Virus record (IMG/VR): IMGVR_UViG_2585427768_000002
Location: 1 to 10,708 of that record
Direction: 5' to 3' (one strand)
DNA length: 10,708 nt
Origin: a virus
Taxonomy: Duplodnaviria > Heunggongvirae > Uroviricota > Caudoviricetes
Within the stretch, counting starts at the first letter, position 1. Each line of letters opens with the position of its first letter. Below, one piece after another: positions 1-6,254 of this stretch. Under the pieces are notes generated by a model, which saw only the letters and a list, made by a program, of their open reading frames with translations, was not told where the DNA came from and did not search any database. Both the position numbers and the translations under genes were made by a program.

Positions 1-82
1 CTGGCAACATTAACAGGCGTTCCATTGCTGGAATTGCACGTTCCGCCACCTCACGCAGTGCCTGGTAATTAATTTCGCTCAC
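1..82 (-). CDS. hypothetical prophage protein, N-terminal fragment (gene continues beyond window start); paralog of the next gene
   Basis: Reverse complement of 1..82 reads GTG AGC GAA ATT AAT TAC CAG... = MSEINYQALREVAERAIPAMERLLMLP. SD AAGGAGG lies 6 nt upstream of the GTG at 82..80. The GTG overlaps the TGA stop of the upstream gene (GTGA). N-terminus resembles that of the 79..759 gene (MSKIDYQELREAAEQ). Confidence 0.5.
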   Translation of the reverse strand, partial: MSEINYQALREVAERAIPAMERLLMLP

Positions 83-759
83 TGATTGCCTCCTTTGCGA
101 AGCTGGGCAGCAAAGTCAACTAACCACTCAGTCATTTCAACCTTCCCTACCAGGTCTGAACCAGGGTGCATACAGCAATCACTCTGCGCCGCTTTGAAAT
201 CCTTACACTCATATTCTTGGGCCACCAGATTTTTTGCAGCTTCTATAGCAGCATCCACCCCCTGCGCCCGGACTTCAGCCAGGAAAGCATCAGTGGTTGG
301 CGTTTCAGGTATCTGTCTCCTCATCCGTTCTATTGCATGATTGAACCCGAAGTCTTCCGCGAGAGATACGTCATCCATATTGTCATTGTCATCCTCAATA
401 TCCCGTGATTTTGGAATTGCAGACTTTATTCCCGCATTCTCAGCAGCCAGCGCCGCGCACTTGGCCTCAAGAGCGGCAACCACTTCCTGATGGTCTTTGT
501 ACTTAACGTATGAGCCGGAGATGTCATCACCTTCGGTGTTTAGCCATGCGTCATTGCAATTCACTGCGTAGGTTCTGATGCTGATGCTCTCCCGCCCCTG
601 ACAGACGCCAGGCCAGTCAATAAAGTATCCGCAATGCCTACCCTCAGACGTGCGCGCAGGATAAATGCCGTTATGACCCGGCAAAATATATGCTACCCAT
701 TCATCTTGCGTTGCCTGTTCCGCCGCCTCGCGCAGTTCTTGATAGTCAATCTTGCTCAC
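79..759 (-). CDS. hypothetical prophage protein (about 226 aa), coiled-coil-like central region
   Basis: ORF track lists 79..792, but the ATG at 792 has no SD and overlaps the upstream gene. GTG at 759..757 is preceded by AAGGAGG (6 nt spacing) and overlaps the upstream TGA stop as GTGA, so I set the start there. C-terminus ends ...LRKGGNQ. Confidence 0.6.
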   Translation of the reverse strand: MSKIDYQELREAAEQATQDEWVAYILPGHNGIYPARTSEGRHCGYFIDWPGVCQGRESISIRTYAVNCNDAWLNTEGDDISGSYVKYKDHQEVVAALEAKCAALAAENAGIKSAIPKSRDIEDDNDNMDDVSLAEDFGFNHAIERMRRQIPETPTTDAFLAEVRAQGVDAAIEAAKNLVAQEYECKDFKAAQSDCCMHPGSDLVGKVEMTEWLVDFAAQLRKGGNQ

Positions 760-1106
760 TGGTTGCCTCCTTTGCGAATCTGTTCCGCCCATTCTTCTAG
801 GGATTTCTCCGCATATTCACCGGACAGGCCATCAATCGGGTGTGGTTCATTAGCCAACTCTTCTTTCGCTGACAGAATCATGCGTGTAACGTCGAAAACT
901 TCACGTAAAGACTTATTGATAAATCCGTGATTGAAAGCCGCAGCAAGACGGCTTGCGGTATAGTTAATACCCTCGTTGCGAGCCTCAGCACGTACTTCAT
1001 CGAATTTACGCACCAGATACTCAGCATTTGTTTCATTCACTTTCAGATCTCGTGGTACACATTTCCCGCGAAGAAACCCTTCCATTTCGAAAACATTCAT
1101 GCGCAT
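756..1106 (-). CDS. hypothetical prophage protein (116 aa)
   Basis: Complete ORF. SD GGAG (plus-strand CTCC at 1115-1118) sits 8 nt upstream of ATG 1106..1104. C-terminus ...IRKGGNQ matches the C-terminus of the downstream paralog. Its stop overlaps the next gene's GTG start. Confidence 0.6.
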   Translation of the reverse strand: MRMNVFEMEGFLRGKCVPRDLKVNETNAEYLVRKFDEVRAEARNEGINYTASRLAAAFNHGFINKSLREVFDVTRMILSAKEELANEPHPIDGLSGEYAEKSLEEWAEQIRKGGNQ

Positions 1107-1143
1107 TTGCGTAACTCCGATAACTCGTTAAAACGTTCCATAA

Positions 1144-1341
1144 ACATCCCGTAACCGGATCCGCGATCTGGACAACTATAACAAGGCGCTGTTTGACGCC
1201 CTGACCCACGCGGGTGTGTGGGAAGACGACAGTCAGGTGAAAAGAATGCTGGTGGAGTGGGGACCGGTTATCCCGGAGGGGAAGGTCGAGATCACTATCA
1301 GTAAGTACGAAAAAGCGAGTTGCAAATTAGCAACTCGGTAA
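1144..1341 (+). pseudogene. rusA: rusA (Holliday junction resolvase) 3' remnant, N-terminally truncated
   Basis: Frame from 1144 to TAA at 1339-1341 translates TSRNRIRDLDNYNKALFDALTHAGVWEDDSQVKRMLVEWGPVIPEGKVEITISKYEK... This matches the recalled RusA C-terminal catalytic region (RDLDN...DALT.AG.W.DD.QV). No start codon or N-terminal half is present; a stop lies at 1141-1143 and the minus-strand gene 756..1106 occupies the upstream space. Confidence 0.55.
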
Positions 1342-1386
1342 CGGAATTGAGCAACACCCTAAATTTGGGTATTACCTCGTTAAAGA

Positions 1387-1406
1387 TACTGTATTTATGA
1401 ACAGTG
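1387..1406. promoter_or_regulatory. LexA-box-like palindrome (candidate SOS operator) upstream of the KilA-N gene
   Basis: Sequence taCTGTatttatgaACAGtg at 1387-1406 has the CTGT-N8-ACAG architecture with an AT-rich spacer, like the E. coli SOS box consensus TACTGTATATATATACAGTA. A possible -35 TTGATA (1412-1417) and -10 TAAGTT (1435-1440) lie just downstream. Confidence 0.45.
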
Positions 1407-1503
1407 TATCCTTGATAACTATTAAAAATCGCAGTAAGTTCATCCTGCATCAACGAAAAGGGAGTGCAGTCCCGCTCGTGGATAAAAATTTGTGGAGAAA
1501 CCA

Positions 1504-2319
1504 ATGAATCAGTTGCTTGTAATTGATGGCGTTTCTGTGCGCCAGTACTTCGAATCTAACTACTGTCTTAACGACCTTCAGAAAGCTGCTCTTCTTGCCG
1601 CTGGTGAGAATCGCTCCTCCCGTTCGCTGGAAGTTCACGAGTTTATGCGTCGTCCTGAAACGAAGGCTCTTGTGGAATTATTGGAAGAAGAAACTACGGG
1701 AGATTCCCGTAGTATTCCTGTCATCACCATTCAGGGGCGCAATGGTGGGACGTATGTCTGTAAAGAGCTGGTCTATGCATATGCAATGTGGATCAGCCCG
1801 GCATTCAGCTTAAAAGTGATACGTACTTTTGATGCGCTTCATAATTCATCACCAGAAGAAACCACATCCGACAAAATTAAATCCGGGGTCATTCTGCTTG
1901 AATCAGCAGCAAAGACTCTAAATCTGTCAAACTCCTCGAAACTTGGTGCATACCAGAAATTATCAAAGGTAGCTGGTCTTCCTGAACTTATGCCGATCTA
2001 TGCCATTGATGCACCTGCTGATGCGCCAGATGGTTCAAGCCGCCCTACGCTGTCGCTGAGTGCACTGCTGAAGCAGTATGGTATCCGCCTGACGGCTAAT
2101 CAGGCATATCACCAGATGGCGAAGCTGGGGATCGTTGAACAACGCGAACGATACAGCCGTACCGCGATTAACAACATCAAAAAATTCTGGTCGCTGACCG
2201 CGAAAGGCTGCATGTTCGGCAAGAACATCACCAGTCCTGCAAATCCGCGCGAGACGCAGCCGCATTTCTTCGAATCCCGATTTCCTGAGCTGTTAAAGCT
2301 GCTCGATACCGTTCATTGA
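1504..2319 (+). CDS. KilA-N domain protein (phage antirepressor/Roi-like DNA-binding protein)
   Basis: ORF track 1492..2319 begins at a GTG. ATG at 1504 has SD GGAG 7 nt upstream, so I set the start there. N-terminal region GRNGGTYVCKELVYAYAMWISPAFSLKVIRTFD matches the KilA-N core motif (G-T-[WY]-V-x-x-x-L-x-x-x-[YF]-A-x-W-[IL]-S-P-x-F) as recalled. Confidence 0.7.
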   Translation: MNQLLVIDGVSVRQYFESNYCLNDLQKAALLAAGENRSSRSLEVHEFMRRPETKALVELLEEETTGDSRSIPVITIQGRNGGTYVCKELVYAYAMWISPAFSLKVIRTFDALHNSSPEETTSDKIKSGVILLESAAKTLNLSNSSKLGAYQKLSKVAGLPELMPIYAIDAPADAPDGSSRPTLSLSALLKQYGIRLTANQAYHQMAKLGIVEQRERYSRTAINNIKKFWSLTAKGCMFGKNITSPANPRETQPHFFESRFPELLKLLDTVH

Positions 2320-2326
2320 GGTGACT

Positions 2327-3316
2327 GTGAGAGCACTACTGACCCCTGAAATTGCCCCGCGTATGGGGATCGTATTGTTCAGGCCAGGTTCAGAGCTGAT
2401 GCCCCTGTTTATGCAGGGGCGTGTCCTGCTGGAGCCTGAGCCGGAGCGTTATTCATCTTTCGCCAGTGGTGCCGTTCCGGCGGCATCACAACCGCTGGCG
2501 GATGATCCTGCCGTTCGGGCCGTGTTCCGCCATGAGGCAGTGATCCGTCGTGCTGGTGGCGTGGAATGTCTTGAAAGCTGGTTACTTCGTGAAAAAGGCT
2601 GCCAGTGGCCTCATTCCGGATGGCACAGCGAGAACATGACCACAATGCGACACGCTCCGGGTGCAATCCGTCTGTGCTGGCACTGCGATAACCAGCTGCG
2701 CGATCAGTTCACGGAACGGCTGGAATCAATGGCAACGGATAACTGTGCCCGCTGGGTGTTGTCTGTTGTGCGTCGGGATCTCGGTTTTGATGACAGTCAC
2801 GTTGTGACAATGCCGGAACTGTGCTGGTGGCTGATTCGTAATGACCTGGCGGATGCCTTACCGGAAAGTGCAGCCCGTAAGGCACTGAGATTACCGAAGC
2901 CTGTTGTGCCGTCTGTCACCCGGGAAAGTGACCTTGTGCCTTCGGTTCCTGCCACCAGCATCATCCAGGATAAAGCGAAAAAGGTGCTGGCGCTGAAAGT
3001 GGATCCGGAGTCGCCGGAGTCTTTTATGTTACGCCCCAAACGTCGCCGCTGGGTTAATGAAAAGTACACGCGCTGGGTTAAGACGCAGCCGTGTGCATGT
3101 TGTGGAAAGCCTGCTGATGATCCCCACCATCTGATAGGCCACGGTCAGGGGGGAATGGGTACAAAAGCGCATGATCTCTTTGTGTTGCCTTTGTGCAGAA
3201 AGCATCACGACGAGCTGCATGCGGATACCGTGGCATTTGAAGAGAAGTATGGCTCCCAGCTGGAGTTGATATTTCGTTTTATCGATCGTGCGCTGGCAAT
3301 TGGTGTGCTGGCCTGA
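2327..3316 (+). CDS. DUF968-like prophage protein with C-terminal HNH-like His/Cys motif (YdfU-like)
   Basis: ORF track 2321..3316. GTG at 2327 is 5 nt after SD GAGG (2318-2321), so it is the likelier start; 2321 remains possible. C-terminus CACCGKPADDPHHLIGHGQGGMGTKAHDLFVLPLCRKHHDELH is HNH-like. A second Cys/His cluster (CQWPH...CWHCDN) lies mid-protein. Family assignment is from memory of E. coli prophage DUF968 proteins. Confidence 0.65.
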   Translation: MRALLTPEIAPRMGIVLFRPGSELMPLFMQGRVLLEPEPERYSSFASGAVPAASQPLADDPAVRAVFRHEAVIRRAGGVECLESWLLREKGCQWPHSGWHSENMTTMRHAPGAIRLCWHCDNQLRDQFTERLESMATDNCARWVLSVVRRDLGFDDSHVVTMPELCWWLIRNDLADALPESAARKALRLPKPVVPSVTRESDLVPSVPATSIIQDKAKKVLALKVDPESPESFMLRPKRRRWVNEKYTRWVKTQPCACCGKPADDPHHLIGHGQGGMGTKAHDLFVLPLCRKHHDELHADTVAFEEKYGSQLELIFRFIDRALAIGVLA

Positions 3317-3333
3317 TTTTGTGGAGAAAGTTG

Positions 3334-3690
3334 ATGCGTGATATGTATGAAGTAATGGATCGTTGGGGAGCTTGGGCTGCTTCAGACAATAGCGGAGTGG
3401 ACTGGCAGCCGATAGCGGCTGGTTTCAAGGGACTTTTACCTCATGGCAAAAAGTCACGGATTCAGTGTGATGATGACGAAGGCATCATGATAGACAGTTG
3501 TGTGGCTCGGTTGAGAAGGTATAAACCAGAGGAATATGAGCTCATCATCGCCCACTTTGTTATCGGTATCTCATTACGTACTATTGCGAAGAAGAGAAAA
3601 TGCTCTGATGGCACAATTAGGAAGGAACTGCAAACTGCAATGGGGTTTGTTGACGGCTGTTTAGCAATGTTAGCTTATAGTATGGCATAA
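3334..3690 (+). CDS. late-gene antiterminator Q, short QuuD/phage-82-like type
   Basis: ATG at 3334 has SD GGAG 7 nt upstream (track start 3319 is a TTG). Protein MRDMYEVMDRWGAWAASDNSGVDWQPIAAGFKGL... resembles the short (about 120-130 aa) Q antiterminators of DLP12-type prophages as recalled. Position after the nin-region genes and before the tRNA/late region fits. Confidence 0.75.
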   Translation: MRDMYEVMDRWGAWAASDNSGVDWQPIAAGFKGLLPHGKKSRIQCDDDEGIMIDSCVARLRRYKPEEYELIIAHFVIGISLRTIAKKRKCSDGTIRKELQTAMGFVDGCLAMLAYSMA

Positions 3691-4884
3691 AAAATAAAAT
3701 AGATTTACTGCCGATTTTTCAAAAAAGACTGGGAACTGTTTATATCCAACGTAAATAAGGCCTCCATAAAACATGGCTGATGCGAGATATTTAACAGTTC
3801 TCATCCTTTTTTTAGCTTTATCAATCAAACCTGTAATGCTACTCTTAATACTATCTGCATTATCTTTGATTTCTTTATTTTCTTCAAACTTTAAATACTT
3901 ATCGAAAGCGGACTCCACTCGAGAACGTAAGTTGTCGAATGTTTCATTGAATATCTCAATAGAAATGTAATTGACTTTTTTTATCATCCAAAGTCCTGCG
4001 ATAATCAATATTGCTTCGGTTGTTTCATTAGCCTTCACTAAGCCACCAGCAGCTATTAATGCACCGGGAATAGTCAATGCTTTTGTCTGATTAGATGATA
4101 TGAATTCGTTAATTTTACTCGTGAACTCAAGATTTTTCTCATCGAGTTCGTTAAGAATTTTATTTACAGAAAACCTCTTTGTGTAAATCTCATATAGTTC
4201 ATCATATTTTTTCCTGACGAGTTCAGTAGAGTTAAGCAAGTCAAAGAAATTGAACGTACCATTTGCTTTAAATACTTCGTTTATGGCTGAGCGTATAACG
4301 AGCTTGCGCTCGCTTTTGTGTAAATCATTGATTTTTATTGTGTCGAGAAGCTCCTTTATAATTTCATATTTAAGAGACGAGTTCGATAAGCGATTAATCT
4401 CGCTATATTGTAAAAAATGCGTGAGTTCGACTGTATAACTTTTGTCTTCATTGGTGAAAAATAAGACAGAGCAGTCACTGTTATGATGATCAGCAATTAA
4501 TGAAAGGATATCTTTCCACATAAAGAAAATATGGATTTTTTCGATGCTTTCATTCTTAGAAGTAGGGAGTATTAACGGCGTTCCGATGATATAATTTTTC
4601 GGAAGAGCGTTTTGGGTGTTTACTCTAGACCAAAAAGACTCAACATTCTCATAAATTATAGCGTCATCCCAAGATGAAGCTTGGCGATCTAGCCAAATTT
4701 CATTATTTTCGATGCAGGTTGTTGCCTTTTTATAACCTATAGATTGTAACAGTCTAATTATTTCAGAACTATTTACAATAACAATGCTTTCTTCAAGACT
4801 TATGACAGTGTAGTAGCCCTCAACTCTGCTTGAGGCTCCGTTAATAATCTGCGCTAATCTTGATAAGTCATCAGCAATTGTCAT
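3670..4884 (-). CDS. hypothetical membrane-associated protein (404 aa): soluble N-terminal domain plus C-terminal hydrophobic helices; candidate effector of a two-gene module
   Basis: Complete ORF. ATG at 4884..4882 lies 2 nt after the stop of the upstream gene (TAA-TA-ATG), indicating translational coupling. Hydrophobic segments at about aa 268-303 (ALTIPGALIAAGGLV...AILIIAGLWMI) and about aa 365-400 (YLASAMFYGGLIYVGY...). Very AT-rich, with AGA and ATA codons. No family recognised. Confidence 0.75.
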   Translation of the reverse strand: MTIADDLSRLAQIINGASSRVEGYYTVISLEESIVIVNSSEIIRLLQSIGYKKATTCIENNEIWLDRQASSWDDAIIYENVESFWSRVNTQNALPKNYIIGTPLILPTSKNESIEKIHIFFMWKDILSLIADHHNSDCSVLFFTNEDKSYTVELTHFLQYSEINRLSNSSLKYEIIKELLDTIKINDLHKSERKLVIRSAINEVFKANGTFNFFDLLNSTELVRKKYDELYEIYTKRFSVNKILNELDEKNLEFTSKINEFISSNQTKALTIPGALIAAGGLVKANETTEAILIIAGLWMIKKVNYISIEIFNETFDNLRSRVESAFDKYLKFEENKEIKDNADSIKSSITGLIDKAKKRMRTVKYLASAMFYGGLIYVGYKQFPVFFEKSAVNLFYFLCHTIS

Positions 4885-4886
4885 TA

Positions 4887-6062
4887 TTAGCTGTCTCTAT
4901 ATCTTTTGAGTTCATCATAATTTGCCTGACTCAATTTTATCACAATTTCGCATTTGTTGTCAGTGAGAATTACAGGCTTATTTGACTTTTCGTCTCCAAT
5001 AGCTCCACGCATTATTTTCAACTTAAAATTATTGTCGTTATCTGCCACTTCAATTGTAAGCGCGCTTTCAGCTGCTTTAGGAGTTGGTTCAAATTGAGGG
5101 TCAATCTGGAAACCATTAAGATTAACAAAATCGACAAACGTTCCCTTACATTTGTGTGAATCAGTCAGGCATGAGTCAATTATTTTTGAAATATCCTCTA
5201 TCTTAACGGACTTATTTCCGTGTTTATCTTTTGATTTTTTTTCCAGTAAGGATTTAACTTCATTGTCAATAGTATCACGCAGTACACGACCGAGTGAGTT
5301 TTTACTAGCAAAAATATCTATAGCACTGAATAATTGCTGAATGCTTCTTTTATTGTCCGAATCATGTCGGCAACCTAATGAGTCTTTGAAAAAATCGCTT
5401 TTAGATTTACCTTGCAAGAAATGTACATATGAGTCACCCTTGTTTTCTGGATAACTGGCTTCGAATAAAGTTAAATCGAACATCGCAGCCTGCCGTAAGG
5501 CATCGGTATTAATTGGATTTAATCTTGTTGGGGTCAACTTATCCGAATCAAAGTCATAGGCGCTTTGTTTATCAACCATTACGATTAGAAGTTTCCCCAA
5601 ATCCTCTGGTTCGGTAGACTTATAGTGGATGAAAACAACGCTCCCCCCCTGAAGTTGGGCAACTCTCGATTCGTTATTAGCATTATGTTTAAGCTTCTCT
5701 ATTATAGCTCTAGATAAATCAATGAATTCATTATTTTTATTAATGTATTTTTTTAGGATCGTAGGAATGGATGAAGGGTTGTGATCTGAGTCTAGGAAGT
5801 TATGAAATTTGTTTTTTCGGCTAAATTTTTTCTCAATTCTGGTTATGAATTCAGATGTGACTTCATTTTTTAGATCCCAAACTTCACCTAATCGATAATC
5901 AAATGCTCTTGAATCATTTTTTTCAAGATTTGCTGTTACAGCACCAATAGGAAAGTACGATTGTTTGCCCAGCACTACAACATGAGGCGTGGCACCGCAT
6001 TTATCGCAAGCTACAGTTGGGTCGTCAAGAACATTGCCACATTCTAAACAAGTTATATCCAT
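4887..6062 (-). CDS. zinc-ribbon protein with NdpA/YejK-like (NA37 family) nucleoid-associated domain (391 aa)
   Basis: Complete ORF. ATG at 6062..6060 with SD GGGA about 7 nt upstream. N-terminal C5-x2-C8-x10-C19-x2-C22 zinc ribbon. Residues 139-147 GGSVVFIHY, 212-220 YVHFLQGKS and SDFFKDSLG align with recalled YejK motifs ([31 protein letters not shown]). AT-rich. Confidence 0.8.
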   Translation of the reverse strand: MDITCLECGNVLDDPTVACDKCGATPHVVVLGKQSYFPIGAVTANLEKNDSRAFDYRLGEVWDLKNEVTSEFITRIEKKFSRKNKFHNFLDSDHNPSSIPTILKKYINKNNEFIDLSRAIIEKLKHNANNESRVAQLQGGSVVFIHYKSTEPEDLGKLLIVMVDKQSAYDFDSDKLTPTRLNPINTDALRQAAMFDLTLFEASYPENKGDSYVHFLQGKSKSDFFKDSLGCRHDSDNKRSIQQLFSAIDIFASKNSLGRVLRDTIDNEVKSLLEKKSKDKHGNKSVKIEDISKIIDSCLTDSHKCKGTFVDFVNLNGFQIDPQFEPTPKAAESALTIEVADNDNNFKLKIMRGAIGDEKSNKPVILTDNKCEIVIKLSQANYDELKRYRDS

Positions 6063-6087
6063 TATATATCCCGAATTATAAGAATGA

Positions 6088-6115
6088 ATTTTTATGTGGC
6101 TGAAAATTCTATCAA
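6088..6115 (-). promoter_or_regulatory. candidate sigma70 promoter for the minus-strand two-gene operon
   Basis: On the minus strand: TTGATA (plus coords 6115..6110), 16-nt spacer, AAAAAT (6093..6088). A TATAAT hexamer (6080..6075) lies directly before the SD. Hexamers identified by eye only. Confidence 0.25.
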
Positions 6116-6182
6116 AACACTAACGCGTACGCAAAAAGTATTGTATTGTGTTAAGAGTGGTTACTTCGCCACACAACTTAAC

Positions 6183-6204
6183 CCCGCCACTGAGCGGGTT
6201 TTTT
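6183..6204 (+). terminator. intrinsic terminator-like hairpin (plus strand)
   Basis: Stem CCCGC (6183-6187) / GCGGG (6194-6198), 6-nt loop, followed by TTTTTT (6199-6204). No plus-strand gene lies immediately upstream. Confidence 0.5.
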
Positions 6205-6254
6205 GTACCTGTAAACTTGGTGCAGTACAGTAAACACGCTGGTGGTCGTGAATA

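Follow-up and report, generated by a model that had tools for sequence, protein, structure and literature searches.

What is the AT-rich pair of genes that occupies the cargo position of a lambdoid prophage, how might it act, and has it been described before? The question arises from the IMG/VR virus record IMGVR_UViG_2585427768_000002, of which we analysed positions 1 to 10,708 (the window, 10,708 nucleotides (nt) in its full length). Between the antiterminator gene Q and the late region, two complete open reading frames (ORFs) lie on the minus strand, at 4887..6062 (391 amino acids (aa)) and 3670..4884 (404 aa). A reading of the raw sequence, hereafter the original prediction, had proposed that they form an undescribed defence or exclusion module. 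We conclude that the operon is almost certainly DS-1, a two-gene anti-phage system carried as lambdoid prophage cargo, and that it is already known rather than new; its products are DS-1A (upstream gene) and DS-1B (downstream gene). This identity, combined with a mechanism resembling that of the anti-phage system type II PANGU, is the best explanation as a whole, and we consider the combination reasonably probable.

Identity, distribution and phenotype of the operon

Searches with curated family models placed both proteins well above the respective cut-offs. DS-1A matched the equivalog NF053868 (DS1_1_antiphage, nucleoid-associated anti-phage protein) with 451.4 bits against a cut-off of 330 (2e-135, profile positions 3-369 of 369), and DS-1B matched the equivalog NF053869 (DS1_2_antiphage) with 375.2 bits against a cut-off of 315 (3e-112, profile positions 1-337 of 337). 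Among the PHROGs, the two proteins correspond to PHROG 3767 (2e-112) and PHROG 5023 (2e-158), respectively. At the residue level, the DS-1A translation is identical over all 391 residues to the published protein WP_000355468.1, and the DS-1B translation is identical to WP_000150292.1 over all 399 residues printed in the supplement (the protein has 404 aa). Both accessions are annotated at the locus of Escherichia coli NCCP 13905 that matches the operon by megablast at 100% identity, and the newer RefSeq annotation lists them as 'nucleoid-associated anti-phage protein' and 'anti-phage protein'.

The DS name comes from the DefensePredictor study (bioRxiv, January 2025; Science 2026, PMC13092281). 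There, DS-1 is the candidate D390, a unit of 2,393 bp at 220602-222994 of NZ_RRVY01000002.1 that encodes WP_000355468.1 (YejK/NA37 at residues 42-382) and WP_000150292.1 (PMC13092281). The operon in the window has the same proteins, the same gene order and the same 2,393-bp unit length, and no sequence-level difference was detected; the source strain differs, the published contig being NZ_RRVY01000002.1 whereas the window is close to the NCCP 13905 prophage. The claim of an undescribed and unnamed system thus fails in the face of curated equivalogs, RefSeq annotation and a published description, because the operon matches a named defence system, the very outcome that the original prediction had listed as refuting its novelty.

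PADLOC-DB 2.0 (2023) held 0 families for either protein at E <= 1, and the scan with that library, which the original prediction had proposed, accordingly returned nothing. The library dates from 2023, before DS-1 was described, so that this result is not a sign of novelty. Foldseek against the viral structures of BFVD returned nothing at E <= 0.001.

The published phenotype bears directly on function. E. coli MG1655 that carried D390 under its native promoter on a low-copy plasmid was challenged with 24 phages, and the reported values of -log(efficiency of plating) were 7.6 for Bas1, 2.7 for Bas26, 1.7 for Bas3, 1.7 for T3, 1.0 for T5 and 0.92 for T7 (Table S7, PMC13092281). SECphi27 formed small plaques only, D390 is marked as replicated, and Table S7 has no T4 row among all 26 D390 mentions (PMC13092281). 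The same study names the YejK domain as newly implicated in defence, and DS-1 is not among the systems dissected in its Fig. 5 (PMC13092281). The proposal that the operon is a defence module is therefore borne out, as the identical native-promoter unit protected MG1655 against several phages (PMC13092281). Bas01 is a T1-like member of the Drexlerviridae, to which Bas3 also belongs, and Bas26 is a T5-like member of the Markadamsvirinae.

Among 5,426 complete E. coli genomes, 106 carry the operon in full, O104:H4 strains included, and the window has 99.9-100% matches in O104:H4-type strains. By contrast with its flanks, the operon was found in 0 of 50,697 deposited phage genomes, where megablast matched flanks only and tblastn with DS-1B gave no match.

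The two genes also travel together well outside E. coli. In a genome scan with the DS-1B profile, a DS-1A homolog lay directly upstream of the DS-1B homolog and on the same strand in 12 of 12 loci of other species; these represent different gammaproteobacterial species with identity down to 27-35%, one locus being cut by a contig end and one looking degraded. An NA37 gene was likewise found immediately upstream in all four remote relatives with usable contigs (P0301, P0322, P0265, P0307), and the stop and start codons of the pair often overlap in remote relatives. The co-occurrence that the original prediction had wanted checked is thus kept at both distances. An exhaustive profile search placed 777 representatives at 50% identity in the DS-1B family with E <= 1e-3, and 369 with E <= 1e-10.

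Around the 12 loci, prophage-type neighbours (integrases, Q plus DUF968, RecT/YqaJ, Dam, a minor tail protein) mix with defence-type neighbours (Septu-like PtuA/PDC-M01A ATPases, AbiEii, DarT, NERD, PIN and type II methylases). This mixture is the neighbourhood expected of mobile defence cargo.

Two relatives call for separate mention. At the Photorhabdus viridis locus (L013, 5651-6948), the DS-1A homolog is detectable at residues 5-125 only and the DS-1B homolog is split over two frames; the pair there is probably pseudogenised. The other case is a 2.6-kb contig (L003), binned as a Lactobacillales metagenome-assembled genome, with a complete DS-1-like pair whose proteins share 38-48% identity with the enterobacterial ones. 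Mis-binning is more likely than a Gram-positive host, because all other close relatives are Gammaproteobacteria.

The gene structure itself was read correctly from the outset: the coordinates of both ORFs and the TAA-TA-ATG junction between them were confirmed. With about 400 codons each in DNA of 35% guanine-plus-cytosine (GC) and strong family matches for both, the ORFs are not chance. Translational coupling across the 2-nt spacer is probable. The strong AT-richness that had been claimed is real, with a GC fraction of 0.349 over 3670-6062 against 0.502 in each flank, but the contrast first given (18-35% versus 55-60%) overstates it; in 300-nt sliding windows, GC ranges from 0.33 to 0.40 within the operon and from about 0.43 to 0.60 outside.

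Architecture of DS-1A and DS-1B

DS-1A is a paralog of the nucleoid-associated protein YejK. The NA37 model (PF04245) of Pfam matched residues 64-376 at 1.2e-23, and the AlphaFold2 (AF2) model of the protein (mean predicted local distance difference test (pLDDT) 85.6, predicted template modelling score 0.80) gave a single significant Foldseek match in the PDB, E. coli YejK 9BE2 (E 3.9e-14, probability 1.00). The DS-1A family profile retrieved the same entry from PDB sequences at 2.1e-19. These profile and structure searches, proposed by the original prediction, agree with its assignment of an NdpA/YejK-like domain.

YejK consists of two domains, and two extended beta-arms form a dimeric clamp around a 30 A electropositive pore (PMC11229321). 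The protein (also NdpA, 9BE2) has this two-domain fold with dimer-clamp arms in common with DS-1A, at about 18% identity; the DS-1A model retains the N-domain strands and hairpin (E140-196) as well as the C-domain strands and helix (E336-375, H379-386) that correspond to the YejK dimerisation arms. DS-1A differs in adding an N-terminal zinc ribbon, in not keeping the C-domain pore residues, and in being prophage-encoded in an operon with an effector. Identity with housekeeping YejK itself was rejected, as DS-1A scores 81.4 bits against the cut-off of 341 of the YejK equivalog NF001557.

YejK binds DNA without sequence preference, and the substitutions R173A/R176A/K177A and R276A/R280A/K284A abolish binding (PMC11229321). 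We mapped these residues from the HMMER alignment to the 9BE2 chain (numbering offset +3) and counted conservation, here and below, in one set of 44 relatives. K219 of DS-1A aligns with YejK R173, at a position occupied by K or R in 42 of the 44; R176 falls within a 3-residue segment missing from DS-1A; and S220 aligns with K177, next to K221, which is K in 28 of the 44. DNA binding by DS-1A is plausible.

At the N terminus, four cysteines (C5, C8, C19 and C22) make up a putative zinc ribbon. Pfam zinc-ribbon models stayed below threshold (E 0.07-0.28) and the model is weak at this point (pLDDT about 60); HHpred in the DefensePredictor supplement assigned NinF/Zn_Beta_Ribbon to residues 3-26 with 86% probability (PMC13092281). 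All four cysteines are found in 21 of the 44 relatives, the enterobacterial branch having the ribbon and the Pseudomonas-type branch being without it. The pairing of a Cys4 ribbon with a YejK-like domain, as originally described, therefore holds in this protein, although the ribbon, judged from the translation and alignment to be real, does not define the family.

DS-1B, the predicted membrane-anchored effector, has no relative in Pfam, PADLOC or PDB sequences by profile search. Weak Pfam matches (SWIB, CdvA and UPF0184; E 0.09-0.6) were set aside as noise. Its AF2 model (pLDDT 84.3) comprises an alpha/beta domain at about residues 1-165, a helical region, and long helices at 220-269, 288-331 and 337-383.

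Charge and conservation divide DS-1B into distinct parts. In 43 of the 44 relatives, the part that corresponds to residues 1-268 has a net negative charge, and the C-terminal third is mostly net positive. The acidic domain (residues 1-165) is a candidate docking or 'DNA-mimic' domain. The block from the juxtamembrane helix into the first hydrophobic segment contains residues that are invariant in the 44 sequences at identity down to 22% (Y227, S239, N241, K242, E246, K257, Q266, K268, A269, P273, A275 and A278). We infer that the function of the effector may centre on this juxtamembrane and first transmembrane block, and that the acidic domain, which is poorly conserved, may serve as a partner-specific docking surface.

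The C-terminal hydrophobic helices that had been noticed in the downstream protein correspond to uncharged stretches at 269-283, 291-301, 366-381 and 391-404, and three hydrophobic segments are conserved family-wide. Model confidence is lowest at residues 269-301 (pLDDT 58-67). Distant relatives have longer uncharged stretches, of 15 plus 16-29 residues for the first two and of 20-31 residues at the C terminus in many relatives.

Candidate mechanisms of DS-1 immunity

Type II PANGU combines a YejK-like protein, Pag2A, with a partner, Pag2B, that carries an N-terminal acidic DNA-mimicking (DMK) domain and a C-terminal transmembrane region (bioRxiv 10.64898/2026.04.06.716658, April 2026). It is bicistronic with the YejK-like gene first, occurs in E. 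coli and acts against phages, and DS-1 is alike in each of these respects and in a partner with an acidic N-terminal part and a predicted C-terminal membrane region. Type II PANGU is recognised by an NA37 protein in a two-gene operon with a gap below 40 bp, an arrangement that DS-1 shares, and by a C-terminal transmembrane region in the partner, which DS-1B has by hydropathy only and at a borderline level in the E. coli protein. The NA37 gene in first position, the 2-nt gap, the acidic N-terminal domain and the C-terminal hydrophobic segments together favour the type II PANGU mechanism for DS-1.

Applied to DS-1, that mechanism would start from a YejK-like ring-clamp dimer of DS-1A bound non-specifically to chromosomal DNA. 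A phage that destroys the host chromosome would deprive DS-1A of its DNA substrate and release it, and the free protein would bind the acidic N-terminal domain of membrane-anchored DS-1B. The conserved juxtamembrane and transmembrane block of DS-1B would then damage or depolarise the inner membrane, and the cell would stop before phage release, which amounts to abortive infection. Whether DS-1 in fact works like type II PANGU, through release-triggered abortive infection, is in our view an even call. The suggestion of a nucleic-acid sensor coupled to a membrane effector in abortive infection has a published model in a system of equivalent architecture.

The experimental basis of the analogy lies in PANGU^Ecu, in which both genes are required and neither is toxic alone (bioRxiv 10.64898/2026.04.06.716658). 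Pag2A binds the acidic domain of Pag2B with a dissociation constant (KD) of 19 nM; upon T4 infection, Pag2A-GFP leaves the nucleoid, and growth curves indicate abortive infection (bioRxiv 10.64898/2026.04.06.716658). In type I PANGU, the nucleoid-associated protein (NAP) dimer threads DNA through its pore and binds long DNA only; the effector enters this pore and makes it collapse, and the pair becomes toxic when the NAP can no longer bind DNA (bioRxiv 10.64898/2026.04.06.716658). That system (Pag1A with the GRel toxSAS Pag1B) has an NA37 clamp-dimer sensor of the same kind as DS-1A, in which the basic pore residues K200/R203/K204 bind DNA and release from degraded DNA licenses the effector; its effector is a soluble alarmone synthetase, whereas DS-1B is a predicted membrane protein. 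Of the type I basic triad, DS-1A keeps one positional equivalent (K219) plus the neighbouring K221.

Several observations weigh against this analogy. The likeness of DS-1 to type II PANGU is one of architecture; the published mechanistic dissection covers other systems than DS-1, so that DNA binding by DS-1A, its release on genome degradation, its binding to DS-1B, the membrane effect and abortive infection are all inferred by analogy. Even for type II PANGU, the membrane effect 'remains to be determined' (bioRxiv 10.64898/2026.04.06.716658). At the protein level, P328, E332 and T336 of DS-1A align with YejK R276, R280 and K284 (the P328 position is R in 17 of the 44 relatives, chiefly in the Pseudomonas-type branch), the hydropathy of E. 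coli DS-1B is borderline (maximum 19-residue Kyte-Doolittle average of 1.56), and the zinc ribbon present in DS-1A has 0 mentions in the PANGU preprint.

The phage spectrum adds to these difficulties. T4 is a target of the two PANGU systems studied, PANGU^Ecu among them, and T1 and T5 are resistant to both. The spectrum of DS-1 differs: its largest effect is on the T1-like Bas1, T5-like and T7-like phages are affected too, and T4 is without an entry. In favour of the mechanism, T7 and T3 degrade the host genome. T1 and T5 are likewise cited as host-genome-degrading phages (bioRxiv 10.64898/2026.04.06.716658). The two experimental settings differ as well, with an isopropyl beta-D-thiogalactopyranoside (IPTG)-induced synthetic operon for PANGU^Ecu and the native promoter on a low-copy plasmid for DS-1. 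Within DS-1, protection of 7.6 logs against Bas1 and of 1.7 logs against Bas3, both Drexlerviridae, suggests a trigger more specific than generic genome degradation.

This uneven protection within one phage family leads to the alternative that survives best, in which DS-1A directly recognises a phage-specific molecule and activates DS-1B independently of host-genome degradation. The cue could lie in injected linear DNA that passes through the clamp, either in its free ends or in an unusual structure that it adopts, or it could be a phage protein to which the zinc ribbon binds. T4 would fit this alternative, since it degrades host DNA and triggers PANGU but has no entry for DS-1, and the loss of the YejK C-domain pore residues from DS-1A points the same way. 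The Cys4 ribbon, gained in the enterobacterial branch and not in the Pseudomonas-type one, is compatible with an added recognition input, yet the ribbon is dispensable at the family level (21 of 44) while the pair is kept everywhere. The clamp body and the K/R219 position are conserved, and release from host DNA is what the one experimentally studied precedent of NA37-based defence suggests. On balance, we consider direct sensing unlikely.

The tight coupling of the operon and its conserved gene order would also suit a toxin-antitoxin-like arrangement, in which DS-1A restrains DS-1B, an intrinsically toxic membrane protein, until the phage shuts off transcription or translation in the host and DS-1A runs out. 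Toxicity is common among effectors that are membrane proteins, and relatives have a ParE toxin gene and genes of the AbiEii/DarT type in their surroundings. What makes such an arrangement improbable is the behaviour of PANGU, where neither gene is toxic alone, the NAP is an activator and not an antitoxin, and a DNA-binding-dead NAP plus effector is toxic; moreover, there is no indication that DS-1A is unstable.

Superinfection exclusion, in which DS-1B in the inner membrane would keep phage DNA out, DS-1A would be its regulator or cofactor and infected cells would survive, is a little less probable still. It draws on the prophage origin and moron-type slot of the operon and on the predicted membrane association of DS-1B. 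The affected phages use different receptors, however (Bas01 has LptD as its suggested terminal receptor, T5 uses FhuA, and most Markadamsvirinae target BtuB), a DNA-clamp partner is unexpected for an entry block, and type II PANGU behaves as abortive infection.

Finally, DS-1A might chiefly silence or organise prophage or host DNA, with phage resistance as a by-product. Members of the YejK family are nucleoid proteins, and another element-borne NA37 paralog, NdpA2 of an integrative and conjugative element, offers a precedent (it is described as a member of a transcriptional triad that controls PAPI-1 transfer; PMC8565334). We regard this reading as very improbable: a DS-1B-type partner is strictly kept even between distant lineages, which argues for a two-part machine, defence genes abound in the neighbourhoods, and a low-copy native-promoter clone outside the prophage gives up to 7.6 logs of protection.

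The cargo slot between Q and the late region

The operon lies in an exchangeable position of the prophage. In an alignment with Shigella phage SfII and the Stx2a-converting phage Stx2a_1447, homology in Q is lost near 3660 and resumes at about 6107, with a swap-in cassette in between, which corroborates the placement in a cargo site between Q and the late genes. The features of the window and of the other slots are listed in Table 1.

At its left border, the 3' ends of Q and the DS-1B gene are convergent and overlap by 21 nt (window 3670-3690), whereas no such overlap exists in SfII and Stx2a_1447, where between a few and about 20 nt separate Q from the end of the cassette; the insertion here may therefore have replaced the last Q codons. 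On the other side, the cassette-specific region directly upstream of the operon presumably holds its promoter and ribosome-binding site, and a sigma-70-like hexamer pair was found at 6115..6088 on the minus strand (match to consensus only).

The right border is a conserved stretch that ends in a terminator-like hairpin (6183-6198) with a T-run, as detected by a terminator scan; its fold of -18.2 kcal/mol (z = -1.35) is not significant by structure alone. The holin gene of SfII follows shortly after this stretch. We take it as a probable late promoter/terminator region. Late transcription reading antisense through DS-1 was considered and dropped, since the conserved stretch lies beyond the cassette and the two appear divergent. 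Copies of the stretch were located at 3,222 places, spread over 2,243 of the 5,426 complete E. coli genomes, compared with 106 genomes for DS-1.

We examined eight prophage slots, this window included, and found eight different inserts: seven are minus-strand cassettes of two to three genes, and one is a single plus-strand gene. The SfII cassette, SfII_49/50, is 'hypothetical' in GenBank and matches the PADLOC candidate system PDC-M53 (A at 2e-32, B at 3e-54). It shares with DS-1 the Q-adjacent slot and the layout of two minus-strand genes, and one of its two products is small and hydrophobic; the proteins themselves are unrelated to those of DS-1, and PDC-M53 is only a computational candidate. 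The Stx2a_1447 pair, about 2 kb upstream of the tRNAs and stx2A, includes a 179-aa protein with weak membrane-protein matches and has no defence-model match. The plus-strand gene of E. coli strain 272 encodes a CPBP-family intramembrane protease, and CPBP/Abi-type proteins have been linked to immunity functions; the late-region gene order of that prophage (helix-turn-helix (HTH) regulator, three tRNAs, esterase) is as in the window. The unknown slot-cassette proteins had no match in PADLOC 2.0 or NCBIfam 20, leaving DS-1 and the SfII PDC-M53 as the only recognisable inserts. Six of the other slot-cassette proteins were also absent from the DefensePredictor supplements, an absence that carries no information because several of these files are truncated. 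A literature search, which was not exhaustive, found nothing specific on the Q-adjacent lambdoid slot as a defence hotspot.

Table 1. Positions of the DS-1 operon, its protein parts, the slot borders and the inserts of comparable slots (window coordinates unless a locus is named)
Feature	Position	Strand	Basis or content
DS-1A, 391 aa, YejK/NA37-fold paralog with N-terminal zinc ribbon	4887..6062	-	NF053868, NA37, identity to WP_000355468.1
Putative Cys4 zinc ribbon of DS-1A (CxxC-x10-CxxC)	5997..6050	-	read from translation
Predicted YejK-like two-domain clamp body of DS-1A, residues ~36-382, both beta-hairpin arms	4917..5957	-	AF2 secondary structure
Intergenic spacer TA (2 nt)	4885..4886	-	DS-1A stop / DS-1B start; junction ...GAC AGC TAA TA ATG ACA...
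DS-1B, 404 aa, predicted membrane-anchored effector	3670..4884	-	NF053869, PHROG 5023, match to WP_000150292.1
Acidic N-terminal alpha/beta domain of DS-1B, residues 1-165	4390..4884	-	net charge -9, isoelectric point (pI) 4.8
Juxtamembrane helix into first hydrophobic segment, most conserved DS-1B block, residues 226-284	4033..4209	-	44-sequence alignment
Hydrophobic helix-break-helix of DS-1B, residues 269-301	3982..4080	-	uncharged stretches of 15 + 11 residues
C-terminal hydrophobic segment(s) of DS-1B, residues 366-404	3673..3789	-	uncharged stretches 366-381, 391-404
Upstream region of operon, cassette-specific	6063..6106	-	without conservation in SfII or Stx2a_1447; homology from about 6107
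Antiterminator Q gene, left border of cargo slot	3334..3690	+	RefSeq coding sequence of 99.98%-identical locus
Conserved late-region stretch (~100 bp), right slot border	6107..6205	+	nearly invariant in window, SfII, Stx2a_1447
Slot of this window	3660-6107	-	DS-1
SfII slot (L014 838-2500)	841-2455	-	genes SfII_49/50; PADLOC candidate system PDC-M53
Stx2a_1447 slot (L015 1381-3000)	1402-2965	-	genes 23/24; uncharacterised pair, 179 + 343 aa
E. coli prophage slots	L025 2079-3600, L026 2098-3600, L027 1422-3600, L029 2522-3600	-	different cassettes, 2-3 hypothetical genes each
E. coli strain 272 slot (L028 2547-3600)	2698-3516	+	CPBP-family intramembrane protease

To the right of the operon, a 65-aa ORF, an HTH regulator, three tRNAs (7403-7652) and a SASA/NanS-type esterase gene (8141-10102) follow, with lysis genes beyond. 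This late region (6329-10102) has the layout of Shiga toxin (Stx) phages, namely a small ORF, a regulator, three tRNAs and a NanS-type SASA esterase, and no stx genes are present between the tRNAs and the esterase in the window. The first tRNA is called Met(CAT) by ARAGORN and tRNA-Ile in RefSeq, the latter as expected for an ileZ-type lysidine tRNA. A blastn comparison of the window with the prophage of E. coli NCCP 13905 gave 99.98% identity over 9.4 kb; the match covers only 1152-10539, and window positions 1-1151 and 10540-10708 are non-colinear, a sign of mosaic exchange both in the early region and beyond the esterase.

That a defence operon was picked out correctly from raw sequence supports the sequence-only reading approach. 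Because DS-1 is published, has curated hidden Markov models and already carries a name in RefSeq, no new biology is gained from the finding. Of greater use is a by-product, the Q-adjacent cargo slot, most of whose proteins match nothing in current defence catalogues. DS-1 may represent a distinct branch of NAP-based immunity, and not PANGU^Ecu by a different name, with another cue (T1/T5/T7-like phages instead of T4, possibly through the ribbon), and the slot a hotspot of interchangeable cassettes, for the most part minus-strand and uncharacterised; we put this forward tentatively and with considerable doubt. If it is true, the Q-adjacent hotspot would be a rich, unexploited source of new defence systems.

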